64,000 nt of DNA from Microthyrium microscopicum (lineage: Eukaryota), in contig MU004244.1 in NCBI GenBank assembly GCA_010405405.1, positions 933,895 through 997,894 of the forward strand. Direction: 5' to 3'. The notes beneath the pieces were generated by a model. That model searched no databases, was not told where the DNA came from, and worked only from the letters and a program-made list of their open reading frames with translations. Positions 5,201-59,109 of this stretch are shown piece after piece. Within the stretch, counting starts at the first letter, position 1; the number at the start of each line of letters is the position of its first letter. The translations under genes and the position numbers were made by a program.

Positions 5201-8200
5201 TGATCCGATGGATCAGGCATCTGAAGAGCCTGATGATGCCGCGGCTGAAGCAGAGGCTCTAGATGATCCAGTAGAAGAACCGACAGTAGAGAAAGAGGCA
5301 GCCGTGGTTGCTCCAGAAGAGCCGGCAGCAGAAGAGCCGGCAGTAGAGGACCCAGTAGCTGATCAGCCAGATACTGGCCCTGCTGTGGAAGAATCTACTG
5401 TGGACGAATCTACTGTGGACGAATCTACTGTGGACGAATCTGCTGTGGAAGAATCTGCTGTGGAAGAATCTGCTGTGGACGAATCTGCTGTGGAAGAACC
5501 TGCTCCTGAAGACTCTGCCCCTGAAGAACCTGCCCCTAAAGAACCTGCCCCTGAAGAACCTGCCCCTGAAGAACCTGCCCCTGAAGAACCTGCCCCTGAA
5601 GAACCTGCCACAGAGAGACTCGTGGTAGAAGAACTCGCAGCAGAAAAACCCGCAGCAGAAGAACCCACAGCAGAAGAGCCCGCAGCAGAAGAACCCGCAG
5701 CAGAAGAACCCGCAGCAAAAGAACCTGCTGTTGAAGCATTTGCAGCACCAGAGTCGGGTGAGAGCGCCGAAGCCGAGGATTCTGGCCTAGAACTACCACC
5801 CCCAACGCCCACCGAGTCAGAGGCACCACATGACGATGCTCCTGAAGACGTTCAAGACGCAGGCTCACCTCAACTTCCTCCACCTACACCGCCATCGCCT
5901 ATTGAAAGTGAGGCCGTAGCTCTGGACGCAGATGCAGTCTCAGAGAAGCTTTCAGAAACCGCGGACGCCCCAGTTCTGGAAGAGCAAGAAACTGACGAGC
6001 CGGCTGTAGAGGCCGAGACCATCAAAGAAGAGTCTACAGATGACGATCCACCACCACTTCCGGCCTCAGCTCCTGAGGCAGATTCAAGCAGTGATCCACC
6101 AGCAGAGCCAGAAACCGAAAAGGCAGAAGTCCAAGAGGCTCAAGCAGCAGCACCAGCAGAGCCAGAAACCGAAAAGGCAGAAGTCCAAGAGGCTCAAGCA
6201 GCAGAAGACTCGCCACCCCCTGCTGACGCCACTCCTGAATTGCCGCCAAGCCCAGTGGCTGAAGAAGTAACCGTTGAAGAGCCAGCGGAGCCGGAACCGC
6301 CTGAGATTAATGAAGAGGCTGAAGATAACCCTGCCTCCGAGGGCCAGAGCGCGGAGCCGGAAGCCGAGGCTCAATCGCAAACAGAAGTGGAAGATGCCCC
6401 TGTTGAAGCCCTTGCTGAAGACGGATCGGAAAAAGACGCAACCGATCAGGATAGCAACGACATCCCTGCGGGCGATACCGTCGAGCAAGATGAAGAAAAT
6501 GAAGAAGATCCTTGCCCTGTCGACGACAACCCACCTGCGGACGACCTGAGTAGAGCAATGGAAGAAGATCACGGCGAGACTGAAGCCGATGATGCGAAGG
6601 AATCGGAAGAACAACATGCTGATGAACCAGCCGGAGAAGAATCTGCCGCTCCAGCTGTGGGAGCTCCAGCAGAAGAAACTACTGCCACACAAGCTCTTGA
6701 TGAGGAAGAAATTGTCGACGTTGATGATACACCCAGCGCTGAAGCCGAAGATCATGCTGAGCCTGCTGAGCCTGTTGAGCCTGCTGAGTCATCGGAAATC
6801 GCAGAATCTGCTGAAGAAATTGCAGAGACCGATAATGCTGCCAGTTCCTCAAAGGAGGCAGAGCTAGCCTCGGCTATCCCAGAAGCTGACACTGAAGATG
6901 CCCCCCCTGAAGCTGAGCCATCTGAAGATTCAGCTGTAGCGGAGAGCGCTGAGGCTTCCAAAGACTTCGGTAGTGAAGGCGACAACGAAACTGTCAACGA
7001 CAAGGCTGAAGCTGATCTTGGCGATACTTTGGAAGAGGTCGAAGAGACCGAAGTCTCAACAGAAGCGCGTGATGCGGTCGAAGAGCCAGAAGCTGCTGAA
7101 GAAGTGGACGAGATACCTCCACCTCCACCACCCCCTCCACTTGCTAATGAGGAGCCGGAGCCAGCCCAAGAACCTGAACCGACCAAGGAAATAGCAGAGC
7201 CAGAGTTAGCGGCCGCTTCTGCAATTGATGCCGGTGAAGAAGAGCCGGAAGAGCCCATTCCTGAGCCAGAGCCCTTAGAGGAAACGGAGCCCGAGGAGGC
7301 CGCACCCAGTGAACCCGTTGTGATGCCTGGTGATGAGCCCACAAGTGAACCTCCAGCCGATACAGAGGATCCAACAGAACCGCCAACAGAAGAATCAGTG
7401 GCCGAAGCACCCGCTGAGGATGACCCTGTTGAGCCAACTGAGGCACCCGCTGATACACAAGAGGCTAGTGATGCTCTTCCAGAGGCCCCTGAACCCCCTC
7501 CAGCGCCTTCAGCGGATGATGCCGAGGTGGCTTCGGAAGCTGGGGACAATGGCGAAACTTTGGAAGAAGAAGGAGAAGAAGAAGAAGAAGGAATACCGCC
7601 TCCACCACCACCACCCGTAGAAGATAATGTGCCTAAAGAGGATGAAGATATCCCAGAACCAGCCACTGTGGACGAAGAAGTGCCAGCTGCGGATGGGGGT
7701 GATGTTGCTGAGCCAGCAGAGGCAGTTGCTGGTGAAGAGTCACCCGCAGAAGGAGTAACTGCGGATGAACCTTCACCAGACGAACCTGCCGTACAAAAGG
7801 ATGCTGATGTTGAACCTGAACCTGAACCTGAACCTGAAATCCAACCTGCCCCTGAACCTGAACCAGCCATGGAAACATCCGAACCAGCCATAGAACCCGC
7901 TCCGACCCCGCCGTCGGCTGAGGACGCGCCGCCTTCAGAAGAGAGAGCTATCAGTCCTCTATCAGCCGAAGATTCCCCTGAAGCCGAAAACGAAGTGACT
8001 CCTGAAGTGGCCACAGATGCGACCCCTGAAGCGATCCCTGAAGCAACTCCAGAAGCGACTCCAGAAGAAGCTGAGAAGGAGATGGCAGATGATGGGAATG
8101 CTGAGGATTTGCCTCCTCTAGCTGCTGGTGTAACACCAACAGCTGAGAAACCAGCACATCGCCGGCGTAGACACTCTCACCGTTCCGATCCGTCTAGTCC

Positions 8201-9746
8201 ACGGGAGAACCGCGATCGTCCTCGGCGCCGTGATACTCTTGTTGAGGCCCCTGATAAACGTCAAAGCACTGGTCTATTCGGCCTAGGCATCTTCGGAAGC
8301 TCCAACAGTCGGCCCAAGGAGAAAGAGAAGGCCCGTGAATTAAAAGCTCGTGAGACTACCAAAAGAAAAGAACCTTCGGCGTTACCAAGCAAAATACTAA
8401 CACCAGCTGAAGAGGAAGAACAACGTAAGAGGCGTGAGGCACGCAGAAAGGAAGAGCGCCGAAAGCGTGAAGGGGATAAACCAAAGAGTGAGTCTAGCAC
8501 CACCAAGCCTATTGAGGAAACGCCAGAAGCTCGTCCTAGCACGAAAGATGAGGCGAAGGAAAAGAAAAAAGCTGACGCTGAACGAACAGCGTATGAACGT
8601 GGAGAGGCTCGTCGCCTTGAAGTTGAGAAGGATGCGGAGCAGATCAAGAAACGTAGCCAGCGGGACGACAACGACAAGCCGACCGAGTCCGATTCTAAGC
8701 CATCAGAGAAAGACCTGTTAAGGAAAAAGCGCGCCGAACGAGAATCTGCACGACGAGCGGCTGAAGAAGAGGACCAGGAAGGTGTTCGCACCAAGTCTGA
8801 CAAACCAAAAGATTCCTCTCCAGCTCCCAAGCCACTCAAAGAAACAGGACGGCGCCATACTACACGAGATCTCAAGAATGATGGTCTTCCTCCCAAGAAG
8901 CCTGGACTTAGTAGGTCTGCGACTCTTGCTACACCCACCAAGTCCACTAGTCTACTCGGCAAATTATTTGGTCGCAATGACACTCCGCCCATGCCGGTCC
9001 GATCTTCTAGCCGAAGAGAAGTCCCTCGTGCCACAGAGAAAGCTGCAGTCAGATCGCCAAGCCAGGAAGCAGCTCGGCGTGAAAGGAAACGCGAGCGCGC
9101 ACTCAAGGATCTGGAGGCAGGCGAAGGATCGTCAGCCGAAAAGAAGTCATCCAAAAGTGGTTCTGAGGGCGACAAAGAATCCAGGAAAGCAACGCCAATC
9201 CCAGAATCGACCCTAAAGGAAGTGCCTGAAAAGACTGCAAAGACTGCAAAGGAATCTCCGACCGTCAAACCGAAAGATCGACCAACATCCCGCCGAATCG
9301 AAAGTGAACGTACTCACAGACGTAGCCCTCGAGTTGAGACTGAGCTGCCACGATCCAGTAGACGAGACCCCGCCAAGACTGATTCGCGACGAGAGCGAGA
9401 ACCTCCGCGTGATGAGCTCGATGATCGTCCCCTTCGACATCACCAGCACCGACAACATCGAGACCGTGAGCCCACAAAGGAGAAAACTAGAGAGCGAGAA
9501 AACCGCCGAGAAGGTAGCGGTGCAGAGAAAGATAGCAAAGGAAAGGAGAGAGACACCCCTCCTTCCAGCAAGCCAGTGACACCCCGTGCCTCCGAAAAGG
9601 AGCGCGAACGACGTCGTCGGGATAGAGATGACCCCGAGCGCGAACGCAGACGGGAGAGAGATTCTCGAACACCACGGGTTCGAGACAAGTCCCCAAAGAA
9701 GAGCGGAGGACTGTTTTCCTCATTCAAACGAACGATGACGAGCTGA
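2225..9746 (+). CDS. Very large (~2,490 aa) Pro/Glu-rich low-complexity protein; exons 2225-2878 and 2925-9746
   Basis: ORF 2213-3193 and ORF 2961-9746 join in frame through a 46-nt phase-0 intron 2879-2924 (GTAAGC...GCTAAC...TAG). The product has poly-Pro runs, EEPA(P/A) repeats and a Lys/Arg-rich C-terminus; no recognisable folded domain. Confidence 0.8.
5380..5730 (+). repeat. Coding 15-bp tandem repeat array (VDEST/VEESA/PEEPA/AEEPA units)
   Basis: Repeated units such as ctgtggacgaatcta, cctgaagaacctgcc and gcagaagaacccgca are visible directly. Confidence 0.85.
6097..6204 (+). repeat. Exact 54-bp in-frame tandem duplication (PAEPETEKAEVQEAQAA)
   Basis: caccagcagagccagaaaccgaaaaggcagaagtccaagaggctcaagcagcag occurs at 6097 and again at 6151. 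Confidence 0.85.
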
Positions 9747-10020: not shown

Positions 10021-10420
10021 AAATTCCCCCGAGCAATACCACATTTCTTCACGACATTCAGACAAACCATAAACACCGCGTTTGCCCAACGCACTCGATG
10101 GCTACCAGAAGAGGCTTTTCTTATGAAGTGCTAAGGGTGCCATCGACTACGATGAGGAATAAGACATTTTGCGGTGTTAGAATGATCATTTCGTCTCAAG
10201 GAATCCTCCGCGCAAAACCACATTACTTGACGACATTCGCTAGAACCAAAACGATCATATTTCCCAGCACACTTGATGGCTACAATAGAATGTGAAAAGC
10301 GTTCTATGATTTCACCTAGAGAAGACCATTTGGTCATTTTCTGCCATGATTTTTGACGTTACCTGTTTGAATCAAAACGTCGTCTCTCCCATCACATTCG
10401 ATGGCTCTCATAGAAGGTGT
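10021..10420. repeat. Degenerate tandem/inverted copies of a dispersed repeat family (core CCCAnCrCACTyGATGGCTAC)
   Basis: Units begin near 10025, 10204 and 10385, with an inverted arm at ~10139-10204. 10204-10340 aligns without gaps to 22454-22590 (~104/137 identical by manual count). Confidence 0.7.
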
Positions 10421-11620: not shown

Positions 11621-13749
11621 TAGGGAATAGGGAATATGGTGGGTGGCATCAAGATATAACAAACCAGGAACAATGAAGTGGAGACACGCTCTTGACAACT
11701 CTGGCTGTAGCTCCTGCCTTGAGAAGTACTGGGGACTAGTAACTACTACAGTCAGTACATACTACATGGGAAAGTACTACCCCCCTGAAGAGGCAGTGAC
11801 GATACAGAATGTTCCCGGATGTAGAAGGAGACAATTAAAGATGGGAAAGTGCCATATACGCAGCCCACATGTGTTACCTCTGTTTTATTAATTTATTTTC
11901 TCTTCTTCTTCTTCTTCTTTCTCTTTTTCTCCAAGTAACGTCAATTGTGAGTAATGCGCTTGATACTATCTTGAAGTTGTGTTAACTTATACAGTAAAGC
12001 TCTTAGACATGTTCACAGAATACGCCACCAACAACACCGCCCTCGCCGAACTCATCTCTCTCCATCGCAAGCTCCTCTCTTCCAATGAGGAATTGCTTGC
12101 TGCCATTAAAGGCATAAGTATGTACCGCCTTCTTTCTTTCTACCCTTCAAAGCAATGGGGCAACAACACTGTCCACGCTTACGGCAGTTGCTGTGTACTG
12201 TGCGTGCGTGCCTCATGGAAGACTGCTTCGTTTGCCAATGCATCTCTCGCATGAAGAATGAGGCAGCTTCGAATTCCTACGACGACTGCGATGGTAGCAT
12301 TATATGGTCAAGGAAATCCGTTGCTATTCCGATTCTTGGCCTCCAATTCGCTCTCCGATTCTCTCTTTCCCGATTAAGTACATACTAATTGCTATATAAG
12401 GTTCTATTCGACAAATCCTCGAACAAATCGGGGTCGGCCTTGCTATTTTGGCCATTCGTGGAGTCTGGAAAGGGCTCATCAAAGAGGGAGGATGGGGTGG
12501 GGGGGTGTGATTTTGGGAGCGATTTGGGTAGGGGTGAAGTGGTGTGGAAAAGGACTTTGTAAGTTTCTCCATCCTCCTTGCCCAATTCCAACTTCATGAT
12601 ACGTTCCCACGGCATTCGATAGCAGACATCGCCCTTGATTGATGGCTTGCATCACAGTTGAAGGCATCTGTTATGTTTGATGATTCATATTGCACCTCTC
12701 TGGCAACTATCACATAGGATGACCCAGACCCAAACTGGTGATTACCAACATATCTGATGCCTCACATCGCACTTGAAAGATCCCAAGAACTTGACGTCTC
12801 CCATCGGGCTTGATGGCGCCCATAGCATTCGATAAAAAGCTAATACTTCATAGGTAGTTGGATTGCGGGTGTCTTCCGAGATTTCGTGAAAGCGGTCGAC
12901 AACTGGATGGCCAACTCGTGGTACAAGAGAAGGGTGGATACCATACCGCTGACCTCGGTCACAATCCAACCTGAACGCGTGCCATACGAGTTGGCCATCC
13001 AGGCGCGCCCTCTACCACCACCAGGTAAGCTCTTCCCGAATGGCGTTTCATCAATTGCTGGGTCCCATATCCAATGCGATGGCTCCGGTCTGATGGAATC
13101 GACCCTCAAACGATATTGAAAATATTTTGACAAGTAATGCTATCGCATTCGAGATACTTGCTTGAGCTATCACATCGGATTTCATGGATCCCATCGCATT
13201 CAATAACTTTGAAACCAGTTTTGTGGAATCTTATACTGACATTTTTCAGCTCCTCAACGCCCAGCACCGGCTCCACCAGCACCACCACTACCACCACTAC
13301 CACTAGAGGAGGAGGAGGAGATGACGACGATGATAATAGAGAGCTTCGCTTGCGAACAGTTTATAGACACAGTCTTTAACTCGATATTGATAATACAATT
13401 GTATCATATACGTACAAACCTAATACCTACACCTCAACGCTAGTGCTAGGTTAGATCAATATAGTAACGGTAGATAATCCATTAGGTAACAGTAGCTAAG
13501 GCTACCTAAGATCTCGCTAAGGCCACTTCAGAATTAGCTAAGGCCAGTTAACAACAGCCATATAAAATCACTCCTAGTGAATGCTCTCTTAGCCAACACG
13601 AGGCAGGAGCAACTATTTAGTAAAGTTCACGTATTAGAAAACTCGATATTTGCCTTATCTCAAAATGATTATGGATACATGAAGAGTGTCCAAATTGAAT
13701 CACAACATTGCTTCCACAGTGATGCTGGAAACCAACTTTCTCTATACCC

Positions 13750-13956
13750 AGATTCAAAAAGTGGTTGCGCGACCCTCCCTCCCAGATCTCCGCCACCCAC
13801 ACGCAGAAAAGCCTATGAAATCCAGTATCTGGAACGCTAAATCGATGATACAATCATCAATGACCGAAATTGTAGGCTCTTCTGTCTATGATTGGTGGAA
13901 TACTGGTAAAACCAACATTTAGGGGAGAGAGGGTCGCGCAACCACTTTTTGAATCT
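13750..13956. mobile_element. MITE-like 207-bp element with 34-bp terminal inverted repeats
   Basis: agattcaaaaagtggttgcgcgaccctccctccc (13750-13783) is the reverse complement of 13923-13956 with one mismatch. No clear TSD. Confidence 0.6.
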
Positions 13957-20478: not shown

Positions 20479-20707
20479 GCGACTTTTTTGACTGGCGATT
20501 AGCACTAGCGTTGGGGTGTAGGGATTAGGTTTGTATTCGTAGATGTTGTCAATGGGGATATATTTGGATATCATGCATTCCATTTCTAGGGTGCTTACCT
20601 CTCGCAGTCATTGTCTTATGAACTTGCCGGAACAAGACCACTTTCAAGATACTTACAATCGAGTCCACTGAAAACAAAAATACCTTGCCTACTTTACTCT
20701 GATCTGT

Positions 20708-20920
20708 CAACGGCATGGCAAAATAAATGGCGTACTCCCATCAACTCTGATGGCTACCACCAGCGCTGCTAACCAAAAGGCGCTTTAATTCCCATCGTAT
20801 CTGATAAATACTCCCAATCCGAACGCCCTTTATGGTAAATAAAGCACTCGATAACAGACCGTAGCCTCTGGGCGCCATCAGAGTTGATGGGAGTACGCCA
20901 TTTATTTTGCCATGCCGTTG
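20708..20920. mobile_element. MITE, 213 bp, perfect 47-bp TIRs, 5-bp TSD (TCTGT)
   Basis: 20708-20754 is the exact reverse complement of 20874-20920; TCTGT lies at both 20703-20707 and 20921-20925. Confidence 0.85.
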
Positions 20921-21383
20921 TCTGTTTGCCTAGGCGCCAACATCGATCATGCAACAGAGTGTGCTTTCCCTCCCATCGTACTCGATAATTGATAGCAGAC
21001 TCGATCACAGGGAACAGTGATATAGATCGAAATACTTCCGTCGTTTCGTCAATGTTCCAGGAGAAGGACGGCCAACAGCAATCTTTGAGTCCTATAACAT
21101 ATCTCAAGCAAAAAAAAGTGCTACCGATTCCTCAATAGTAATTTGGATGGAAATACGATAATAAAAGCAAAGGATCTAACTCCGAACAAAGACTTTTTAT
21201 GACAAGGAGGACTTTTTAAACACTTTACGACGAATGACTTGACGAAAATGGGCAAACTCAGTGTAAGCAACCTTCAATACGAACACTTCAGAACCTTTAA
21301 TGTCTACTAGAAATATCCGCAGACCCAAGCATTACTTGTTCAATCTCACTTATTCTGCCATCTTCACACCTTTAACGTTCAGG

Positions 21384-23862
21384 ATGTCACCAAATCATTG
21401 GGATACAGGCTACATACCAGATACTTTCGACCCTCGCGACCTGCCATACTACTTCAGAGGAACCGATTTAGACCTCCAAAACTTCAACGGCATCCACAAC
21501 CATGTGATTCTGTACGAAAAGTATCCATCGTTTTTCGAGCCAATTTACGACCAGGCCAATACGAAGTCTAGTGTTGCCAATGCTGTAGCTGCTGCGGTAC
21601 GCTTTTTGGCGTGGAAGACTGGTCAGACTGATGAAGCACTGCTTGATCCGTCGAGGCTGTTCATCTACTACAATGCTCGTGCGATTTTGGCGTTGAAAAA
21701 ACTCCATGCTCTGAAGGCGTTTGCGCCGACGTGGCCTTGCGAGGTGGAGGATACGGGTTGTTGTATCAGGGATGCGTTAAAATCATTGAAAATGTTCGGG
21801 AGTGCGAGTGAGGCTGCTTGGCCGTGGGTAGAAAATATGGGTAAGTCATATTTCTGGAGGGCCCTATAACGATGATTGAAAGACGCAGCATGCTCTTATC
21901 GAGTACGATGGTACACAGGGAGGACGGCATATACTTTCATCAGCGCCCGCATTTCCTTGCTAATAAGTTCAGGTCTCAAACCAGGCAGCCCCGTCGCTGG
22001 GAACAGCCTACAGAGCTTCACTGTTGGTTTGAATGATTGCCCATTAGACAGGGCGTATGCCGAGGGCGAAGCCATCACTCAGACTATCAAGTTTGAATAT
22101 TGCCGGCTGGATCCAGATCACCATCCCGCGATTAGCTCGGCTCTCAACGATACTGATAAATGGACTATTGGGTCGCTGACCCTCAACCGCTTGAAACAGT
22201 GTCTGGTGGAAGGATACCCAGTGATCTTTGCTTTATCAAACTACTTTGACCATCCCTGGGAATCAGACGACGTTAGTCGCTCCAGAGAATTGGAGGGCAA
22301 GCCGCCATGGCTAAAAAAGCTGCTGGGTGATGACCAAGGTCCTCCTGTAGATTCGAGTGGAAGGGCGATTGCATTGAGCTCCCATGCCGTCCTGGCTGTG
22401 GGCTTTAATGATGAGACGAAGGGCGTGCTCGTACAGAACTCTCGAGGTAACTTTCTCCCGTGCAAAATCACATTCCTTGACGAAATCGGATGGAACCATA
22501 ACAGCCATACCTTCCAGCGCACTTGATGGCTACAATAGAATGCGATGGGTGTTTCATGAATCCACCACGAAAAGATCATTTGGTCTTTTCAGGTAGCTCC
22601 GATCGTAATGTTAACTATACTGACGAATTCTAGGCAATCTGAACTGCTCTCATTTCTGGATACCGTACGACTACATCATTAGTTATTGGGCCAGCAGCGA
22701 TTTTTGGACCATTCGTCCTACTAACTCAATGCTTCAACGTGACCCTGCATGGGCTACTCTCAGAACGAAACACACAAGCTTCACGTCCCCTTCAGGTTGG
22801 ACTACACTTTTCAGGGATATCGATGGAAAAGTGGCTTCTGTGGCAACGAACACCACTTGTCCTGTTATCTGTCGTACGACGAACAGATCAGATATATTCT
22901 GGATAACATCAAATGGCTCAGTCGAAGGCGTCTACAACAATGGTGATATTTGGTGCAGATATCAGGGTGAAGGCCCTGGGAACGCGGCTGAAGGTGCCAT
23001 TGCTGCAATTTCAAGAACACCCACAAAGATGGAAGTTTTCTGGATTGGTCCAAGGGGATCGGTTGAGGGCATGTACCTCCAAGAGCAAGGCTGGAAGTGC
23101 TGCCGCTTCTCTGACGAAGGCACTGTCGAGAGAGGCAGTGGCATCACTGCGCTCAGCCGTGACAATGACCTCAGTGAGTTTTGGTATGTCAGAACAGATG
23201 GTGGCATCCAAGGCGTATTCTGGGATAAAAGCAGTGGAAAGGGAAAATGGGAAAACTACGAGTTGGCTGGCGGCCACAGCACCACTAAACAGTCTGCGCT
23301 TGCAGCTTGTAGCTGGGACGAAAACCACATGGCAGTGTTCTGGATCGCAATGGACGGAAGCATCATGTTTAGGGAATACAATTCCTTGAACCAAGGCTGG
23401 ATGGCATCTTCACCCACTCGAATTGGACAAGCCAGCTGCGCCGCTCTCCAAAGCCGTGTTACGGTGGTAACCCGATCTCCTGGGAATTATGAGCTCTTCT
23501 TCATTTCACCTGCGGGAGTGGTTCAGCACTGGTCAAAGAATAGCGACACTAAATGGGAAGGCCGCCAGCTAGACAAGGAGCGGCTTGCTCGAGTGGATAG
23601 TGATATCAAAGCGATATCTACTGCCAACGACCGTCTGCAGGTGCTTTGGGTTGGCAACAACAACTCTCTGGTTCTGTCAAATGTTCACGAATACCGGCCG
23701 CTGGAACCAAAACTGCATCCTCTGCTTGCCCAACCAGGACAAGTGAAGCCTGGGAGCCCATTAGCCTTGTTCTGCCGAAAGACTGATGCTGATGACGACT
23801 TGCACGTCAGTTTTACGACGCATGAAGGAATCATGGTTATCATGAAGAAGTCAAATGAGTAG
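21384..23862 (+). CDS. Papain-like (C1A, xylellain-type) domain fused to a fungal fucose-specific-lectin-like beta-propeller, ~719 aa; exons 21384-21840, 21973-22446, 22634-23862
   Basis: Both phase-1 introns splice in frame. C1A motifs: GYIPDxxDPRD, YDQ..SSVANA, SRLFIYYNAR, HAVLAVG, QNSRG, FWIPYDY, DFWTI. The C-terminus has repeats of type xAxSRxxxxxEVFWIGxDGSV. Confidence 0.8.
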
Positions 23863-26274: not shown

Positions 26275-26928
26275 ACCAGCACAGAATCACAAGACTTGCT
26301 TTCCCCAAACTTGATGTTGTTTGGGGCGGAATGTCGTTGATTAGAAGCACGAAAGCAAAGTGAAGGATGGCCGCTGTTAAACAATGTATTCTTCATCAAA
26401 AGGTAAAAATAAATGGAACCTTATGTATAACCTTTGTTCTGATAAAGAGCCGGAAAAAACAAAGACACCCAGTCAACCAGTACAATGACCTGAGCTTCGT
26501 AGCCAGCCAACCGCATGGCAAAATAACTGGCGTTCTCCCATCACCTTCGCTGGCTCCCACAAACGCTTTTCTTGGGAACAATGTGGAGTAAGTCGAGCGG
26601 ACAAAGAGTGTTCCGGTAGAAAAGCGGCGTGATAGAACAATGACCTTGTCAACACCAGGTCAAGTAGCGGCACAATGGCTTTGATTCTATCATTTAGATG
26701 TCCTTGACCAAGGGTTGAAAGTCTTTCAAGAGCTCGTCAGGAAAGTATATATAGCCTTCAAGTGCCAGTGATAGAAGAGGCATCAAATCACCCGGTTCCA
26801 GCGGCGATTACTACATAAACCGTATTTGCAGCTTGCGCGGACTTCCCACTTCAAGAACCAGCTCATCGGTAGTAACAAATCGTATGCTAACTTCCGGACT
26901 GCACGTCCGCACCGCCAAAAACACCTCG

Positions 26929-29403: not shown

Positions 29404-30530
29404 TTACCTCTTTTTCGTGCCTGGTCGTGGCTTGCACTCGTCTCCAGTAACCGGATGGAGCATGATCTTGTTAGGTGATGTCGTCGAATGTCCGTTGAAT
29501 CCTTTGCTCCAGTCGTAGCTGACAGCATAAGCAAAGATTTCTCCGGTATGGTTGAAGGATGTGGAGACAATGGGGCCGCCGACTTCAGGATAACCCTTCA
29601 GTCTATGCTTAGCGTCCTTGTCCCAGAAGTGATATGTTCCGTCGCTGCCGGCTGTGCTGAATGTTCCGTGTTTGGGATGCCATGAGATGGCATTGACACT
29701 GTAGACCTTGGATAGATTGCGGTCGTTGGGGTCGGTGACACGGTGGCATTTGAATGAGAAGTTGAGGCTTTGATCTTTCTCGTCCACATATTGCATGGCA
29801 CAACGTCCTTCTATGCTGCCTACAGCATAGCCAGTCTGGTCATTGTAGCAGCTTACTACGCGGGTCTGCCATTTGAGTGGGCTGGTGATGGTTTTGTAGA
29901 GTTCGGTGGGTTTGTCGAGGTTGAAGATGTCAATGAATCGCTCTGCGAGGCCGAGAACTAGCAGCTTGCCTCGTACATCCATGGAATATACGCGCTCTTT
30001 CAGATCTACAGAGGCAGCTGGAGTTTGCTGCCGTAAATCCCAGTAGCGAATTTTCTTGTCCCATGATCCGGTTACGAGCATTTGATTGCCGCCAGTCTCG
30101 AAGAACTTGACGCACTTGATGGGCTCGTCGTGTGCAGCAACTTGCTGTGCGGTAGTAGCACCAGAGCCAACATCCAGTATCCGAGCGGTTTTATCTGCAC
30201 CGCCAGCAACACATTTGTTGCCATCCTAGGTCGTGTTAAGAAGAAGAGTCTAAGTTCCTACACGGGTGAACTTACCAACGACCATGCGACAGACAGGGCG
30301 GGTGCTTCAAGCTCGAAAATGGCCTTTCCTTGGCTGTTTCCCGACTGATCAATTTCGTAGATACGAACTTTGTTATCCCATGATGATGCGGCCAAGAAGT
30401 TGGCACTCGGGTGAAAAGCAATCTCGCTGACGCTGTCGGATGGAGGATCGCGAACTGCAATGTCTGACTTTAGATCTCCTTGACTATTCGAAGCTGACGT
30501 AGCCGCCGCAGAGCCGAAAAGTCCAGACAT
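29404..30530 (-). CDS. GLE2: WD40 mRNA export factor Gle2/Rae1; exons 30530-30276 and 30225-29404
   Basis: SWDNKVRIYEI, TGSWDK, SPLKWQTR, GSIEGR, FSFKCHR, TAGSDG, YAVSYDWSKG; in-frame GTAAGT...TAG intron. Confidence 0.93.
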
Positions 30531-48030: not shown

Positions 48031-49551
48031 GGCTGTTAGCATTTTCTTGTGGAGTTGTATGTTGTCAAAACTCTGAAAAACTTCGCCAGTAGAAGCCAAC
48101 GAAAAGCAAAATGATCAGTATGCGAAAAGTCCCAGGATCGGCGAACTATTAATACATGGTTTGAACTTGAGCAAGACCAGATTGAAGGGTCAACAATCCT
48201 TTAAGCCCATGGTCCTCACGAATGAGCAAAAGATGCTCAGTGACTAACTGTGGTTTGCATTAGGCTGAGTTGATAACAGGCTAAGACGCGCGAAGGATTT
48301 AATTGCCTCTCGCTTTTACAATTACACGAAGTTTACTCGTCAGGATAGAACTTCAGCCAGATACGGCAGTATTCTCTTCATTCATAAGATACCATTTAAG
48401 ATTTGAAGTAGAGCAAGACTAATCAAGCGGTTGACAGAATAAATGTTGCGTTCCCGTCAAGTATGTTGTCGAATCCATGCTATGCTTTAGGACTGCGTGT
48501 TTTATTGCCCCTTGAGTTCGTACAAAAGTTAGTTGTCTCTCAAATGCGTTCGAAATGAAAACTTCTACTGGCTATAAAGTCTGATGGGAGACACCATCGT
48601 TGATGGGAGCGCACCATTTGATTTGTCAACCGTGGACTGATGAGCTCAAATGCGCTGGTTTTCAACTTGGCTTGCACTGTGCAGGGCATTTGCTGTGTAA
48701 TTAACCCCTATGCAGAATTTGTTGGGTATAGAATTATTTTCATCTTATATATGGGCCTTTTTAAAGGACTATCCCTAACTACCTATATCGTAATTTAAGA
48801 TTAAGATAGTAAATTTAAGATTACTTACTATTTATTATAAAGTTTGTATATAAACCTACCTTATTATAATCTACTTATAAATCTATATCTTTTTATTTAG
48901 GAAATATACTATCTAAGCTTGTTACTACTATAAAGTGTACCTAGTCTTTTATCTTTTAATAAATATAATAAGAACCTACTAAAAATCCTTAAAGCCTAAA
49001 TAATAAAGCTAAAAAAAAGTATAATATTTATATAGACTAGGGTAATAATACCTTAGTACCTAATACTAACTAACTAAAACGTAGAGCTAAGCTTAATTAA
49101 TATATATTCCCTACTCTTCTTATCTATTTCTATTTAAGTTTAATAGGGGTCCTTTATTTATTTTTATAGTATTATAGCTAACGGTTAACTATATAAGTAT
49201 AAGTAAGATTAATAAAAGGAAGTTAAGCGTAAAGAATATAAGGCCTAGTTTAAATTAGCTCTAAAAGCTAAAAAAATAGTACTACTTAAGTTAAAAGCTA
49301 AATCTACGCTAAAGGCTTTACTAATAAAGAATAAGGTAAAATTTTTAGTAAAGTCTATTATATAGGAAGATTCTAAAGATAAGAAAAAGATTATTTAGTA
49401 GTAGAAATATAGCTACTTAATAATAATAATAATAAATAAATAGAATATAGTAAAATTAGCTTATATTAAAACTAAATGTATAGTATTTAATACTAGCTAT
49501 ATAAATAGTTAGTAAGAGTTTAATAAAAATACTAAAAAAGAGCTTAGGAAT

Positions 49552-50880
49552 AAAGAGGGTAAAGAGAATAAAGAGAATAGTAAAGATAAATTAGGTAGTA
49601 GAGTTAAAAGTTTAATAGATAAAGAACCTATAGATTTTAATAACTTGCTAAAATTTATAGAGAAAGAGCTAGATAATTTAGTAAAGTTCTTTAAAGAGAA
49701 GAAGAAAGCTAATCTTAAAGAGCTATAGAAGACGTTTATTAAGGGCTAGAAGAAGTATAATAAGACTAATAGATCTATATTAGACTTAGACCCTATTAAT
49801 CTTAATACTAGTGACGTACTCTTAGCTCTAGTTAATTATATTATTAACTTTTATATAAAGTTCTATAAGATTAAGCCTAGTTCTAATATAGGAGGTTTAT
49901 TAATATATAAGAATACTATTAATAGTATTATATAGTAAAATTTTAGTATTATAGTAATTAAGAAGTAGTATATCTTTATAAAAAAGTATACTATAGAGTA
50001 AAAATATAATACTAAGACTATAACTATTTATTAAAGATCTAACTATCCTAAAGTTACTAGTATAATAAAAGACTCTATAATACTTAGCTTTAATGCTAAT
50101 ATCTTTAAGCTATAAATCTAAGTATTAGATTAATATTATTATATAAATTAGTTAAAAAAAAGTATATATTCTATTATTATTAAGCTATAGCTAGTAATTT
50201 AACTAAAGTTACTTACTAAAGTAGTTTCTACTATAAATATTAGAAGTAATACTTACTTCTTATTATAATAATAGAATAGGCTTACTAATAAATATCTACT
50301 AAATAGTAAAAATAACGCTAAGAAGAAAGATAATCTTATTACTATCTTAATATATAACGCTTATACTTAAGAACGTTATCCTAACTTTTGCTACTACTAC
50401 TTTAAGAATTCTAATAAGTAGTATTTTATTATAAATAGTCCTTAGCTTTAAATATAGAGAAATAATATTAATAGTAGTAATGCCTCTACTAAGAATCTAC
50501 CTATAAAGGTTCTTAAGTATTTTTAGAATATTTAGCTTATAATTAGTAGTCCTTTTATAATTATAAATACTTATAGTACTAGAAAGCTATAAAGCAAAAT
50601 ATCTATATTAAGTACTTACTAGTAAGAACTAGAGAATATTATAGAGTAAATAAGACTAAAGACTATTAAATATAAGAGAAAAGCTACGCGTAAGAAAACT
50701 AAGGCTAATAAGAAGCGTTATAATTATTAGTAAAAGATTAATTATTTAGAGCTAGACGTAAAGAAGAAGTAAATTAAACGTAAAAATAAAAAAGCTAATA
50801 GGTAGGCTATATAAGATAAACGTAAGTCTAATAAATATAAGGCATAAAAGAGATATTATAATAGGCGTTATAATTAAGAA
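49552..50880 (+). pseudogene. RIP-destroyed reading-frame relic(s) inside the TIR element
   Basis: Codon-periodic stretches (KEPIDFNNLLKFIEKELDNLVKFFKEKKKANLKEL*...; KRKATRKKTKANKKRY...) broken by TAG/TAA stops of the kind RIP makes from CAG/CAA/TGG; family not identifiable. Confidence 0.45.
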
Positions 50881-53800
50881 TAAGATAATAGAGAAGTAGC
50901 TTTAGCTCTTTAGTAACTACCTATTTAATTATTATTAGTAAGCTACTTTTAGTTTATATATCCTCTTAATATTCTTTATTATAAATCTTTATAAATATAT
51001 ACTCCTTTATAGTAGGCTTATTAATAATTTATATATCTTTAAGCTTCTTCTCTTTTATTAAATTATCCTTAGTTTTAACTTCCTTAGGATTATTATAATT
51101 ACTTATTATTAATAGTTCTATAAGTCTTACTATAGGCTTTATTTTTATTTGTTTAAAATAACTTAGAAATATATATTAACGTAGTATCTTATACTATAAT
51201 ATTAAATTCTTCTTCTGTCTTAGTTTCTAAACCTTATTAAAAATGTCTACTATAGCTATAAATTTAAACTACTTTATTAGAATATAGTTTTAAAAATACT
51301 ATAAAAAGGTAACGTAAGGCTTTAGTAGTTACTCTAATAAAAGCTATTACTTTAAAATGCTAAACTGCTTCTCTATAAAAATAACTACCTATTACTAATA
51401 AGGGCCTAATTATTAAAATTAAATTAAGTCTTATTATAATATCTTTTATATCTCTATATACTAAACTATACGCATTATCTTTAGTACTAAAAATAATTAA
51501 TACTATATAATTATTCTTTTTCTATATTACTTAGTTTAAGCCTATTAGTAATAATAAAGATTAAGAGGTGATTTAAGGAGTAGTAGACTAGTATAATATA
51601 GATATCCTTACTCTAGAGGTAAAAAGTACTTAAAATAGCAATCTTGTTTACTATATATTAGTAAAGGTAAAAGTTTAGAAATTAATAATAGTATAGATCC
51701 TTAGCGTTATTAAGCGTTTTAAGGACTAGGTTATTAAGAAATAGCTTACTAATTAGGAAGTTAGCGTACCTAATAATAAAGAAGATAATCTTATTTTTAG
51801 GAAGTATTACTTAGTAGGTTAATAAGTTCTAGGTAAGTAGTAGGCGTAGTGGTTAATAATAGAGTTAGGGGGTATCTTTTTACTAACTTAAGCTTGTTCT
51901 TATTAATTTATAAGCGGTTAATTTACTAAAATCCTACTAAAGTTATGTCTATTATTATATATTTTTCTATCTTTTACTTTGCTTCTACTATTTTATATTT
52001 ATAATATATCTTATAATTATTTCTTTTATTACTTATTAAAAATAATACTTTTAACTAACGTAGAAAAGATTTAGAAAATTAAATTATTTATTATAGTGTT
52101 AGTAGTTTAGTATTAGTTATAATTAAAAACTACTCCTAAATATCTTATTTATAACTATAAATTTAAGTAAATAATAATTTTAGAAATAATTAACTACTAA
52201 TATCTAGTCTGTTTCTATTACTACTGTTCTCTATTCTAAAACTATCTATAAAAAACTATTTTTATAAAGTAGAAATATTAAATAATACTATAATTTTATT
52301 ACTATCTTTTAATAATTAAAACTACTAGTAAGAAGTTATTTATATAAAGTAAGAAGGTTAAATAATATTAGATTCCTATATCTAAGCCTCTAAAACGCTT
52401 AGTTATATTATAAAAGTTAATAAAGGTTATAAAGAGTTATAAAAAAAAAAAGTAAAGCGTAGATGTTATACTAAAGTAAGAGGTAGAAGGACTTAAGGAT
52501 TAGTATTAGTATTATAGAGAAAGTAGGTTATAAGTTAACTATAAAGAATATAATTAGAGTATAATTCTCTTTAATAGTTAGGATAGCTTATATATTTATA
52601 TAAATCTAGCTAGTTATAATTATAAGTATAAGTTATTAAATAAAGTTAAGTATTACTTATAGGAAGATAATCTAAGTACTAAGTACTATAATAATATAGT
52701 TAAGTAATATAATAAAGAAAAAGTACTATAGTAAAGAATTCTTATATATTTAAAGAAGTAAAGGAGTTTTAGTTAAGTAATATCTCTTTAGAAAATTAGG
52801 CGCTATAGGTAATTACTATCTTATATATAGCGTATCTAGTATTAATTAGTAGTAAGTCTTAAACCTATATATTAATTAGAAAGTAGTCTATACTAGTAAT
52901 AATTTATAAATTCTATCTATAACTTAGTAATATATAAAGATAATAAAAATATTAACTTATATTAGAATTTATTACGATTTAATAAAGTAAGTAATAAATA
53001 ATAGGATTAGAAGGGTTAATTATTATAATATATAAGCTATTAGGCTTATAGTAATAAAATCCTATAGTATTACTAATAACGTTACTAAGATATAAAATAA
53101 AAGGGCGAATATTAGTTAAGCTATTATTAGTATTAGGGATATTACTATAGCTTTTAAAGCTAAAGATTATATTAAGAACTAACTAGTAGTATTAAGCTTA
53201 GAAACTTAAAAAACTATACTAAGGGTTAAGAACTTGTAGATTAACTATAATAAGATAATTTAAGATTATAAAGAGTAAATAGAGTAAATAAAGTAAGTAT
53301 TAAAATAGTTAATAATATAGAAGGGTATAGAAGTAAAATATAAAGTATTATAGAAAAGTTCTTAATAAATATTATATATAAAGTAGTTTATAAAAGTAAT
53401 AGAGAAAACTAAGAATAAATAAGACTTTATAGGCGTTAGAATATATAAATACTATTACCTATTACATTTTAAAAAGTTATAATAAGAATATAATAAAAAG
53501 AACTTACTAATAAAGAGTTACTATTACTTATAATTAGACGTAGGCTAAAATATTAAACTCTCTATACTAGTACCTTTAGTATAACCTAATGCCTAATTAT
53601 AATAATAAGGCCTATAAGATTAAGATAACTATAATAGTTAGAATAGTAATAAGGAAGATATTATAGATTATAATAAATAGATAAAATAGAGCTACTATTA
53701 TAGCTAATAATATAAAGATCTAAAGATATAATCTTATACTATATTATAACTATAATAGAAAAGAATTAATATTATATTTAGATACGCTAATAAGAGTAAT

Positions 53801-55049
53801 TAGTAAGTAATAGTAACTATCTATAGTAATAGACTAGTAGAGATTAACCTATTAGGTTAATTATAATAGGTAGGTAGTAATATACTTAAGATTTATATAC
53901 TAGTATGTATAATATTAGCTAGAAGGTAGTATTTAGTATAGTCTCTTAGATTTTATAGTTTTATAGTAAAATTACGAAGTCTTATAATATTAAGGGAGTA
54001 AATAGTAAAATAATATAGCCTAATTTTTTAGTAGGTTTAATACTAAGCTACTATTTATCTAATATTTTATATTATTTAATAAAATAAAGATAGGGTTGTT
54101 TAGAATATTTATATAAACTATAGATAGTAAATATAAATAAAATATATATTATAGTTAATATATAGTAAAGCTAAATAGAAATATATAAAAAACTAATATA
54201 TTAATTATAACTAAAGAGTAATATACTACTTCTAGATTTTAGTAAGGGCTAAATATCTTCTTTAAAAATACTTATAATATATATTATTTAGATTAATATA
54301 GCATATTAATATCTTTAACTACTAAGGCTATAACTTTATAAAGATATATTTATAAATAGCTAATAATTATCTCTTATTATCTATACTATAATTATCTATA
54401 TATCTTATTATTACCTAAAGCTTTATAACTATTAAACTTTATCTCTAAATATAATCTTATTACTAGCTATTCTTAATATACTATACTTACCTTATACTTA
54501 TAATTATATAGTAACTTTATCTCTTAGTATAGTATATCCTATTAATTTAATATATATAATAATATTATACGCTATAAGTAGCTAGTAGTTCTCTCCTTAG
54601 TATTTATATTCTTAGTAATATTATCTTATATTACTAATAAATTATATTATTAATATTAAGGCTAGTATAGATAATAGCTTTATATAATACTATTAGTAAT
54701 TCTTAACTTCTCTTCCTTAATACCTAAATACTATATAACTTTAGCTATAGTAAATTAGGTATTTACTATTCTCTTCTTTAATACTAAGTAGTATACTCTT
54801 ACTATTTATCTTCCTATTAGTAAGTTCTTTACTCTAGTCTTAATATTAAGATTATATAAATCTATTCTTAGATATTAGTACTTTATTACTACTAATAAAT
54901 TACTTATTAGTATATAGTATAGATATAGAGGCTAGTTATAATAAATATATCCTAATCTAGTATTACTTAGTATAAAAGGAATATAAAATCTATTCTTTAC
55001 TTACTATTCTTTAGTACTTCTCTATCTTCCTTATTTAATACTTATCTTT

Positions 55050-55622
55050 TGTGACGCCGCAGGGCGATCCCTACCTAAACGGCTCAACTAATGCAAAAAG
55101 TACCGTAGTGTCCAAGCTCGGACACTCCGTGGGATCGCACGTACATATTCTGCACGTCTTGGGAGCCGTTACGGGCTCCCACGGCCAGCATCTCGCTGCC
55201 GTACGGAACGCTCCCGTGACATACGCTCCTCTCTTCAACAAGCCTGTCCTCAGGCGATTATATGTACGCAACTTCCAGCAACGGGCTCTCTGTCCTTTGA
55301 CGACGTCATCGTGTTCGTCACGTGACGCGAGCACTAAGCAAATCGTTATGCTTTGTAGGCTGTCCAGTTCTGTTGCCTCTGCACGAATCGAACCCGCGAC
55401 CTGCGGGATTCACAGACGACAGGGGTAGTACTGGTTGAGCTTGGACACTTTGTGACGCCGCAGGGCGATCCCTACCTAAACGGCTCAACTAATGCAAAAA
55501 GTACCGTAGTGTCCAAGCTCGGACACTCCGTGGGATCGCACGTACATATTCTGCACGTCTTGGGAGCCGTTACGGGCTCCCACGGCCAGCATCTCGCTGC
55601 CGTACGGAACGCTCCCGTGACA
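55050..55622 (-). mobile_element. Non-autonomous mini LTR retroelement (TRIM-like), 573 bp: LTRs 55050-55221 and 55451-55622, 229-bp internal region, TSD TCTTT
   Basis: Two identical 172-bp TGT...ACA direct repeats; TCTTT at 55045-55049 and 55623-55627; minus-strand PPT GAAGAGAGGAG abuts the 3' LTR. Confidence 0.92.
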
Positions 55623-55860
55623 TCTTTACTAATATATTACTTTATTACTTAAGTTAACGCTAGTTTACTATTCCTATTCTATTATTTTTTTATTTAGAAT
55701 AACTTATTCTTTAGTATCTATACTATTAATAAGTCTCTTCTTATAATATTATATTACTAGCTTTAGTAATCTACTATAATTTAATAATAACTAGGATCTA
55801 AATAGGATTTTAACTCTCTTAGTAGTCTACCTCTATATTATATCTATAAACTATAAGTTA

Positions 55861-56220
55861 AGCTACTCTCTAGTATATATTCTCTTAATCTCTCTAGTTT
55901 ATTTAGGTTAAGTTACCTTTTAGTATATATTTTCTTAATTTCTCTAGTTTATTTAGGTTAAGCTGCCCTCTAGTATATATTCTCTTAATAATATTATTAA
56001 GAGAGTTAGGACTCTATACTTTATAGCTTATTAGATTAACTCTAATTTAGTTTTAAGACTTAGAGCTATAGGACTTTATTCCTTATAAGGTGCTATCTTT
56101 ATATTATTTTTATAAATTATAGGTTAAGTTGCTATTTAGTGTATATTCTCTTAATTTCTTTAGTTTATTTAGGTTAAGTCATTATCTAATATATATTTCC
56201 TTTATCTCTTTAGTTTATTT
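55861..56220. repeat. 50-bp minisatellite (two blocks, ~4.6 units) inside the RIP'd element
   Basis: Unit ~agctactctctagtatatattctcttaatctctctagtttatttaggtta at 55861, 55911, 55961 (partial), with two further units spanning 56121-56220. Confidence 0.75.
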
Positions 56221-59109
56221 ATTAGAACTTTACTAATTCGCTTTTCTAAAAGAATATTATAAGAGGTTAGGCTCTGCTAGCTCGCTATTCTAAAAAGAAT
56301 ATTAAAAGAGCTAGGACTTTACTACTACTAGATTACTACTATTTAAAAGTAGTAATAAGATTTTTAAAACTCTTTCCTTACTAGTACGCGCCTTTACTAT
56401 ATTAAAAAATACTATCTTCTATATAAGACTCTAACTTCTATACCTTTGCTTTTATATCTCCTATATATTACTAAAGTATATAAGAGTAAAGGCTTTAGCT
56501 TATTAGCCTTATATTTAAGATGATAAGGAGTTCTATTAAGACTCTAGTATAGTAGTTAACTTCTTTTATCTAAATAGACTAAGAAACTATATAAGAAATA
56601 CTAGTTAGTAGTCCTTATTTATACTTACTATATATAGAAGTAGATAAAGACTACTTATTAGCGTAGAATAGCTAATAAGAATAAGGATAGAGAGATAAAG
56701 AATAGTAAAATATTATTTAATAGTTAGTTTATAAGATATAAAATAAACTAAACTACTATATAATATTAATATCTTATAATTATAATATATAAATTACTTA
56801 GTAGTATCTATATTACTCTAAATATTCTCTTTATAACGTAATAACTAATTATTTTATTAATAAAGCTTTACTATACTTTATATCTTATATTTCTAAAGAA
56901 ACTTATAATATATATATATATCTATTCCTTTATAATATAAACTCTTAGTAATATACCTAAACTATCTAACTATAAAGTAATTATAGCTACTAACTATAAC
57001 TATATACTCTAAAAAAGATATAAAGTTCTTAAAATTTTATTATTTATATACCTAATTCCTTTTTATCTAGGCTTTAAGAATATTAAACGTTAACTCTATT
57101 AAATTAAAATTAGAAGAGTAGGATAATAAATAGTGAATAATAAAGCCTATACCCTTTAATAGCTATTCTATACCTAAATTAGTATAAACTAAGATATTAT
57201 TAAGTACTATAATAGGTATATAATCTCTAAACTAATATTATAATATTAGTATTAGTTATATTGTAATTTAATAATAGAAATCTTTTATATTATAGTACTC
57301 TTCTTAAAATCTAGTATAAGGAAGATATCTATTAAGTATTATAATAGCTAGAATTATATATATCTTTCTATAGTTTATATTTTATATTTATTATAAGAGT
57401 TAACCTATAGGCGTATATATATGTAATCTTTAGCTATTTTACTCTTTAAAGATAAACTTATTTAGAAAGACTAAATCTTAAGCTTTAAACTATAATAAAT
57501 CCTAGTAGTATATAATATAAAGCTCTTTACTCCTATTTAGTAATAATTATATAATAGCTTTTATATTCTACTCTCTTTTCTTAAGTATTCTAAATATTAT
57601 AGACTTATTTACTAATATACTACGCTCTTATTCTAGCTAGTGAACTATTTTAGCCTATAATTACTAGCTATATAATAAAAGATATTATAATAAGGTATCC
57701 TTATTTACTAGTTTAAGTTATAAAAGCGTTTTATATAGTAGTATCTATAGTTTTTATATAGACTTATATTTTCTTATATTATATTTTTAGTACCTAATTA
57801 TTTATATTAAATAGTATATCTTCTTAATAATTCTTACTTTAGTCTAGTTATATTTAAGATATATAATAGCATAGATATAATAAGTTATATTAATATATAT
57901 TCTGCTTAGTTAATATGCCTAAGTTTATATCTAGCGCGTAGCTATAATATAAGGATCTATAATAGTATTAGTTTTAATAGTTAAAATTAGGATAGAAGGA
58001 GTAGTTATTATAATAAGCACTATATATAGAGGTAAATTAGGCTAAGAATCTAAGGCAATAAAATAATAGTTTAGTATATTTGCTTAGTAACTAGTAAGGA
58101 AAGCTATAGTTTTTAAGCTCTTAATAATATAATATACTATAAGGAATATAGCGCTTATACTTTTAATATATATAATATAGTAGATAGCAAGTAGTAGTTA
58201 ATTTACTATCTTAATCTTATTATAGTATAGATGGTTAGGGATAGTCCTTTAAAAAGGCCCGTGCATGAGATAAAAATAATTCTATACCCAACAAATCATG
58301 TAAAACCAATACCTAGATACCTTAAGAGAAATCCTCACCGTAATTTTCACGCATAATCCATCACATCTGAACACGGTTCGCTGCTAGATACGCGGCATAT
58401 TGCCAGGACTTGCAACGGACCGACAAAGTAAATGGTACCCTTCCACCTGCTACTCTTTGGAACCAGATGCTTTATTTTTCATCGAAAGTATCAAATCGTT
58501 GAAGGTGTAGACTCTTCGACTGTTAAAGCATCGGTTTCCCATCAATCACACTGGATTTCAAGGCTATCTCTCGACGTGAAGTGCGACGGGAGAAATTATG
58601 CCTGTTGGGAGCACCATATTCATCGTGCCAAGTTATCAACCAGTTGAGTGCTTGAAGAAGTCAGTGGATGGGACGCTGCAGACATATATGCAAGGTATTA
58701 GACGCAAAAGGAGCAAACTTGCGCAGCTGCAGCCTGCAGGTCAGTGGTCAAAATCGTGATTAGCATGTTTCTAAATCCTCAACAATATGGACATACAGCT
58801 GAGAAACAATTATCCATACCAGCATATGAGAGCCATCGCCATTGGGATGTGGAAGCTTGCCACCATAAGCCAAGTCAAACTGAGCAAACCAAATCGCGAC
58901 CTAATCACACATCTACAACATCTTGAAAGCTCATGCCATCGCTACATTGGATCTGCTTGTTTGCCTGTCCCATCAAACCTCCAGTGTAATGCCCAGCGAA
59001 ACCTACGAAGAAGTGTTAGCAGCAGCCTTCTATCCCTCTCCTTCTCTTCTCTATTTCTCTTCACTACAAGTGTCACCTACCACCCTTAGATCACTAACAA
59101 GCGGGCAAA

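Follow-up and report, generated by a model that had tools for sequence, protein, structure and literature searches.

A non-coding miniature LTR element with a putative self-priming site in RIP-saturated DNA of Microthyrium microscopicum

Introduction

How could an LTR element that encodes nothing be copied, and why does it stand unmutated inside DNA that RIP has saturated? The question is raised by a 573-bp element of Microthyrium microscopicum (55050-55622), which we analyzed within a window of 64 kb, the whole stretch of contig MU004244.1 (assembly GCA_010405405.1) to which all coordinates refer. A first-pass annotation of this DNA had described a TRIM-like LTR element of this length with identical LTRs and a TCTTT TSD. 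Our analysis suggests that the element is a self-priming variant of TRIMs, themselves a known kind, most other miniature LTR elements being ones that borrow a tRNA.

Anatomy of the element

The element is a real, structurally complete, non-coding miniature LTR element (Table 1). Its two LTRs are 100% identical, end in TGT...ACA and are separated by an internal part of 229 bp. The flanking TCTTT has a chance of about 0.5% for a given 5-mer at a fixed flank site, given the flank composition. The boundaries, the LTR identity and the TSD agree with the earlier description, and the insertion of a non-coding LTR element by an integrase is supported. While collapsed repeats can yield identical LTRs, it is hardly credible that the element is an artefact of assembly or an island that is GC-rich by chance, in view of the perfect TSD, the TG...CA ends, and a PBS and PPT in consistent orientation.

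Composition sets the element apart from its surroundings. Its GC content of 0.56 contrasts with 0.20-0.21 on either side, and its density of CpA plus TpG is 129 per kb, compared with 5.9 in the RIP flanks and 142.5 in gene-bearing DNA. This density switches sharply at both element borders. The locus is indeed a GC-balanced, CpA-containing island in RIP-saturated DNA, as first reported.

The lack of gag/pol capacity that had been claimed was also borne out. A Pfam search returned no family in any of the six frames at E<=10, and protein searches with the two longest ORFs brought up no relatives: the 112-aa minus-strand ORF had no match among 1.84 billion representative proteins and the 125-aa plus-strand ORF none among 12 candidates. 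Rfam assigned no family to the element, its sole row (RMST_3, E 0.74, 18.6 bits versus a gathering score of 55) being taken as chance. No further copies or solo LTRs occur within the 64-kb window, and spurious ORF annotations, used as a route to other copies of the element, yielded nothing.

Table 1. Features of the element and of its host block, with the evidence for each
Feature	Position	Strand	Evidence or remark
TSD, left copy, TCTTT	55045-55049	+	Sequence read
3' LTR, 172 bp	55050-55221	-	Identity to 5' LTR
U3/R near-palindrome in 3' LTR, predicted hairpin hiding the 3' primer copy	55107-55126	-	Pairing probability 0.98-0.99 for start 55520, not 55516
Internal region, 229 bp, non-coding	55222-55450	-	ORF, Pfam and protein searches
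Polypurine tract (PPT), run of 11 purines stopping 4 nt short of the 3' LTR	55226-55236	-	Sequence scan and shuffles
tRNA variable-loop/T-arm-like stretch, 26 nt, with B-box-like GGTTCGATTC (55385-55394)	55381-55406	-	Matrix, covariance model, BLAST; not a tRNA gene
Leader segment, putative U5-leader duplex with 55505-55500 and 55489-55483	55427-55440	-	13 bp; 50/2000 shuffles, primer length chosen afterwards
PBS, starts 1 nt past 5' LTR	55437-55449	-	Perfect complement of LTR segment 55508-55520; no TGG tRNA-type start
5' LTR, 172 bp	55451-55622	-	LTR comparison
Predicted U5 stem-loop close to LTR end	55456-55482	-	RNA folding
Putative self-primer, RNA 5' end, 9-13 nt	55508-55520	-	Start inferred between 55520 and 55516
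TATA-like TATGTA, weak	55543-55548	-	28-32 nt upstream of inferred start
TSD, right copy, TCTTT	55623-55627	+	Sequence read
Host: RIP-saturated block, ~9.6 kb, bounded by ~123-bp inverted repeats	48717-58296		Repeat and composition analysis
RIP-broken DDE_3 (Tc1/IS630-type) transposase remnant	57049-57474	-	E 7.8e-6; E 2.1e-6, 28.1 bits vs 28.6 cutoff

Orientation and primer site

The sense strand of the element is the minus strand, an orientation that was absent from the first-pass annotation. In this orientation the PBS complements the LTR over 13 of 13 nt, a length reached by none of 20,000 dinucleotide shuffles of the LTR (best 12 nt, once). Primer sites for tRNA 3' ends begin with TGG, and this start is absent at both ends of the internal region. 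Since the PBS pairs with a segment of the LTR itself, a tRNA primer is not needed to explain the site. The purine run at the opposite end has a chance of 0.6% (100,000 shuffles), and the side on which it lies matches the minus-strand orientation. The plus-strand orientation was rejected, its best PBS-LTR complement being 5 nt and a purine tract being absent. Upstream of the putative primer segment, TATGTA is a weak TATA-like motif. Overall, a PBS after the 5' LTR together with a complementary LTR segment is the signature layout of Tf1/sushi-type self-primed reverse transcription.

Predicted folding of the transcript

Folding predictions strongly support the core primer:PBS duplex and moderately support the accessory helices, namely the U5 stem and the U5-leader duplex. 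An RNA beginning at 55520 is predicted to form both the primer:PBS duplex and the U5 stem-loop (z -2.8, 1 of 200 shuffles), the predicted stem stopping 6 nt before the PBS. When the PBS is blocked by a primer of 8-10 nt, a U5-leader duplex of 12-13 bp is predicted right behind the PBS, in addition to the U5 stem. This duplex was equalled in 92, 50 and 51 of 2000 U5 shuffles for primers of 8, 9 and 10 nt, respectively, the 9-nt length having been picked post hoc from six primer lengths tried. With primers of 11-13 nt it is shorter and not significant (405-964 of 2000 shuffles), and the total fold energy is unexceptional, at best 201 of 2000 shuffles being as good. The 9-nt primer-blocked fold may correspond to the three-duplex 'pretzel' of the Tf1/sushi group, as judged from the description in words (10.1101/2022.12.06.519325).

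Full-length folds, computed without pseudoknots, depend on the start site. From 55520 (13-nt primer) the predicted partner of the PBS is the 5' primer (P 0.99). The other primer copy, in the 3' LTR, then lies in a hairpin (0.98-0.99) at the U3/R junction, which is a near-perfect 20-nt palindrome. From 55516 (9-nt primer) the PBS is captured by the 3' copy (P 0.95-0.99). Consequently, the two folds favour different start sites, the U5-leader test doing best with 8-10-nt primers and the full-length fold with 13 nt.

A proposed replication cycle

We consider it likely that the element is a miniature LTR retrotransposon, non-autonomous and self-priming in the manner of the Tf1/sushi type. From the established anatomy, the complementarity, and the absence of coding capacity and of a RIP signature, we infer a cycle in which minus-strand transcription by Pol II would begin near 55520-55516 of the 5' LTR and give an RNA of about 430-470 nt. 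The first 9-13 nt of this RNA would fold back on the PBS, between the U5 stem and U5-leader helices. An autonomous Ty3 chromovirus would package the RNA in trans, and the RT/RNase H of this helper would cleave off the 5' piece, which would become the minus-strand primer. The plus strand would be primed from the purine tract, and the helper integrase would insert the cDNA, making the 5-bp duplication. Through a chromodomain recognizing H3K9 methylation, the helper would direct insertion to RIP-derived heterochromatin. In Neurospora, RIP-mutated DNA bears H3K9 methylation. The nesting of the element in RIP DNA would then be expected rather than odd, because a chromodomain would target heterochromatin so methylated.

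Individual steps of this cycle have published counterparts. In Tf1, RNase H removes the 11 nt at the 5' end of the RNA, which pair with the PBS (PMC7175516), and Tj1, a self-primed relative, makes a 5-bp TSD (PMC4600332). The chromodomain of MAGGY binds H3K9me2/3 (PMC3350952) and has been proposed to target heterochromatin (PMC3350952, PMC2864245). The first-pass annotation had guessed at an autonomous helper of Ty3/Gypsy type. This remains the best guess and is now argued from the primer site: because the PBS is of the Tf1/sushi self-priming type, the helper class is likely, but not proven, to be a Ty3 chromovirus. Self-priming falls short of proof because plant Copia TAR elements are also predicted to self-prime (PMC6317226).

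The same signals would persist in a relic. A full-length self-priming chromovirus may have lost its gag-pol at this very place, leaving a 573-bp unit that never moved and belongs to no TRIM family. The single copy within the window fits such a one-off event, and internal deletion is, according to Kojima, the origin of some TRIMs (PMC10886601). However, no gag/pol remnant is present in any frame, the LTRs are identical, and only the two cis-acting ends are retained. Furthermore, the RIP signature is absent, although a multi-kb repeated element would presumably be a good target for RIP. We therefore find a deletion derivative unlikely.

tRNA-like stretch in the leader

Part of the leader resembles the T arm and B box of a tRNA, a resemblance with modest support that we treat as a lead and not as a finding. 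The B-box-like 19-mer, whose motif was chosen by eye ahead of testing, scores 18.9 bits on a matrix of 17 independent phage tRNAs, which 0 of 1500 shuffles reach. The combined score of 21.6 is reached by none of 134 gene-region windows, and every one of the 17 real tRNAs scores higher on the matrix that was built from them (23.5-41.2). The A box does not reach significance (927 of 5000 shuffles). Weak phage BLAST matches to the stretch (E 0.08-3) fall on annotated tRNA genes in 27 of 29 cases, representing about 4-5 independent sequences. Control BLASTs with two other segments of the element gave no match for one and 0 of 15 on annotated tRNAs for the other. A covariance model was built from 17 phage tRNAs, with 4 tRNAs that had matched the element excluded against circularity. 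Its RNAalifold structure is without an anticodon stem, and tRNAs of bacterial type represent fungal ones only imperfectly. This model recovers the 26-nt T-arm piece only (10.6 bits, E 0.034 in 901 nt), and window-wide the hit ranks third with E 2.4. The bases of the stretch can also form an alternative hairpin. A complete tRNA gene in the element was rejected, ARAGORN and Rfam both being negative.

A run of T terminates Pol III transcription. The only minus-strand T-runs of 4 or more in the element are one T5 per LTR (55095-55099 and 55496-55500), in each case 7 nt past the primer segment. If Pol III started close to the PBS, it could transcribe about 350 nt before reaching the T5 of the 3' LTR.

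These observations bear on whether the element could be a TRIMp3 of the Helenus/Cassandra kind, with Pol III transcription from the tRNA-like stretch, a tRNA fragment for a primer and mobility through a Copia helper. The score of the 19-mer and the concentration of phage matches on tRNA genes speak for such an origin, and fungal Helenus elements also make 5-bp TSDs (PMC10886601). However, the Helenus definition places the boxes in the LTRs (PMC10886601), and the stretch is internal. No tRNA-derived boxes were found inside the LTRs, where the best matches to the tRNA model have E of at least 0.65, and the only B-box match is the internal one. Other features are equally adverse: the A box fails its test, the T5 in the LTR would terminate Pol III, Pol III initiation close to the PBS would leave out R-U5, the PBS is accounted for by the LTR itself, and ARAGORN and Rfam were negative. 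Taken together, we regard a TRIMp3 origin as very improbable and retain self-priming as the likely mode of replication.

Host block and RIP

The inverted repeats that bound the host block (48717-48839 and 58176-58296) are 84.6% alike, and over their first 74 bp they differ by transitions alone (10 of 10 mismatches). In 12 whole frames and 39 frame pieces of the block, nothing was recognized apart from DDE_3 and DUF6591, the latter weakly (E 0.011) and below cutoff. The other ~6 kb of the block, with several kb of former coding-like sequence, gave no identifying match in the frame searches; comparing 49330-50700 with longer proteins for homology likewise brought up nothing, which is weak evidence. 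Given the terminal inverted repeats and the broken DDE_3, the block most probably represents one large TIR DNA transposon, now dead, or several of them nested in one another; possibly it is a large cargo-carrying or nested TIR transposon. To the right of the insertion, degenerate tandem repeats of about 50 bp and a duplication of about 130 bp occupy 55802-56221 of the RIP block.

The simplest reading of the intact element is that it is unmutated mainly because it was inserted after RIP had saturated the host transposon; since then, its short LTRs have probably made it a weak RIP trigger. Its RIP indices are intermediate (TpA/ApT 1.29, substrate 0.87, CRI +0.42), with a composite index as high as that of the element in only 1 of 134 gene-region windows. 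They are no different, however, from the values that the element gives when its bases are shuffled (P 0.15 and 0.17), CpA having an O/E of 1.06, and RIP in the element is therefore undetectable. A few ancestral RIP hits could nevertheless be present in the single copy examined. No RIP leakage from the host block into the element is visible in the CpA profile. Each LTR has 21 CpA/TpG targets, none of which differs between the LTRs, and 0 differences in 172 positions permits a divergence of up to 1.7%. The first-pass annotation had called the element unmutated and very recent, later than RIP. The first term holds in the sense that RIP is undetectable against own-base shuffles and is softened by the intermediate indices. 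Insertion after saturation of the host also stands, but the age is only loosely bounded.

It had further been proposed that the element evades RIP by being miniature. An old element could have survived RIP-active sexual cycles through its small size, an explanation compatible with self-priming and one that we hold possible, though doubtful. In Neurospora, close repeats of 155 bp can trigger RIP and repeats of 220 bp lead to substantial RIP (PMC4858203), and the LTRs, at 172 bp, fall between the two. Escape by compactness has been proposed for the short TRIMs of P. nodorum, which are high in GC (PMC8549362), two more small TIR elements in the window retain CpA/TpG, and the divergence permitted by the LTRs leaves room for age. 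On the other hand, the unit of 573 bp is above the quoted size limits for reduced RIP of about 400-500 bp (PMC8549362, PMC9970103), so that dispersed copies would exceed them, and its LTRs exceed the repeat length that can trigger RIP. Single-copy DNA between close repeats can also be mutated in Neurospora (PMC4858203), and no leak from the host is visible. Furthermore, some TRIMs of V. inaequalis, two of them near ALVi genes, are RIP-affected (PMC4646964). Size-based escape thus stays a possible but unproven contribution, and late arrival in an already saturated block the simplest explanation.

Other features of the window

The gene-bearing DNA of the window includes a Gle2/Rae1-like exon (29404-30222) that is 100% identical to a Microthyrium microscopicum protein, the next best among the 120 matches listed being at most 78% identical. 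The species belongs to the Dothideomycetes. A 2273-aa open frame (2925-9746, plus strand) is rich in Pro/Glu/Ala repeats and has a basic C-terminal part. Plus-strand frames at 21267-23862 resemble, by eye, a cysteine protease of the papain type with a lectin-like region, rich in repeats, behind it. A 213-bp MITE (20708-20920) has perfect TIRs of 47 bp and a 5-bp TSD (TCTGT) and is not RIP-depleted; a 60-bp end fragment of it, 83% identical, lies at 26508-26567. Another element of 207 bp (13750-13956) has 34-bp inverted ends (97%), keeps its CpA/TpG and shows no obvious TSD. Two dispersed repeats are found in gene-bearing DNA, one direct (132 bp, 77%, 10208-10339 and 22458-22589) and one inverted (36 bp, 94%, 13413-13448 and 20500-20535).

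Novelty and significance

TRIMs had been noted at first pass as best known from plants and some animals. This surprise is reduced, since Dothideomycete TRIMs have been published (PMC8549362, PMC4646964) and these, with the RIP escape proposed for them, largely anticipate it; a further TRIM from a Dothideomycete with active RIP is by itself ordinary. Self-priming has likewise been described for autonomous Tf1/sushi elements (PMC7175516, 10.1101/2022.12.06.519325). Our searches of an open-access library turned up no TRIM described as self-priming. For the TRIMp3 elements, self-priming was sought and not found, and the strings 'ascomyc' and 'self-prim' are absent from its main text (PMC10886601). 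A paper on bivalve TRIMs mentions self-priming as a comparison only and proposes no mechanism. A self-priming variant of TRIMs may already exist, unremarked.

An element that keeps only cis signals defines the minimal sequence on which a helper would act in trans, and it indicates which kind of helper to seek. TRIM searches that require a tRNA PBS would miss such fungal elements or leave them unclassified. With copy data, a family would provide a direct test of small size against late arrival as protection from RIP, because the LTRs just exceed the smallest repeat known to trigger it. A long shot would be an entire lineage of self-priming fungal TRIMs, in which the RNA of about 430-470 nt would be the minimal natural substrate of Tf1-type priming, the U3/R hairpin would hide the 3' primer copy, and a tRNA-derived T-arm/B-box would bind TFIIIC and keep the element transcribable in RIP heterochromatin. 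Its members would be chromovirus parasites below the RIP threshold, adapted to silenced DNA.

Comparison with known systems

By the TRIM definition of Witte et al. (2001, cited in PMC6934838), the element has the expected length (<1 kb), terminal direct repeats within 100-250 bp, no coding capacity, a PPT ahead of the 3' repeat and a TSD. It departs from that definition in its PBS, which is self-complementary and, judged by the missing TGG start, not complementary to a tRNA 3' end. The fungal TRIMs of V. inaequalis and P. nodorum (RLX_TRIM_Sinope) likewise have Dothideomycete hosts and a high GC content in a RIP-active genome, and RLX_TRIM_Sinope numbers 793 copies across isolates (PMC8549362).

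Helenus, Cassandra and Ajax (TRIMp3, PMC10886601) are miniature LTR elements with a tRNA-like B box. They carry small-RNA sequence with A and B boxes in their LTRs, whereas our element has only a T-arm-like piece in its leader; they are also tRNA-primed, and their fungal members are reported from basidiomycetes (PMC10886601). The fungal GalEa Copia elements, from ascomycetes, are likewise without a tRNA PBS (PMC5445492). However, their Conserved Hairpin Site is a palindromic 9-mer that pairs within the leader and has no LTR complement (PMC5445492), while the site described here pairs with the LTR. Membership in GalEa was rejected because the sequence after the LTR differs, as compared by eye, from the CHSeq1 forms (PMC5445492). 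Cassandra and Ajax were set aside in the absence of a 5S rRNA match in the element (Rfam, E<=10). A retrozyme was also rejected: Rfam gave no hammerhead match, and none of the 8 matches in the window to the hammerhead core motif falls in the element.

In its mode of action the element would be like the Tf1/sushi group of Ty3 chromoviruses. These encode Gag-Pol, whereas our element has no coding trace and so is not to be filed as an autonomous member. In Tf1, Tf2, Tj1, Maggy, Skippy, Cft-1, Boty, Grasshopper and Afut1, as here, the PBS by the 5' LTR complements a segment of the LTR, and TG...CA ends, PPT and 5-bp TSD are also shared, as the predicted flanking U5 helices may be. The complement is 11 nt in Tf1 and up to 13 nt in the element of M. 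microscopicum.
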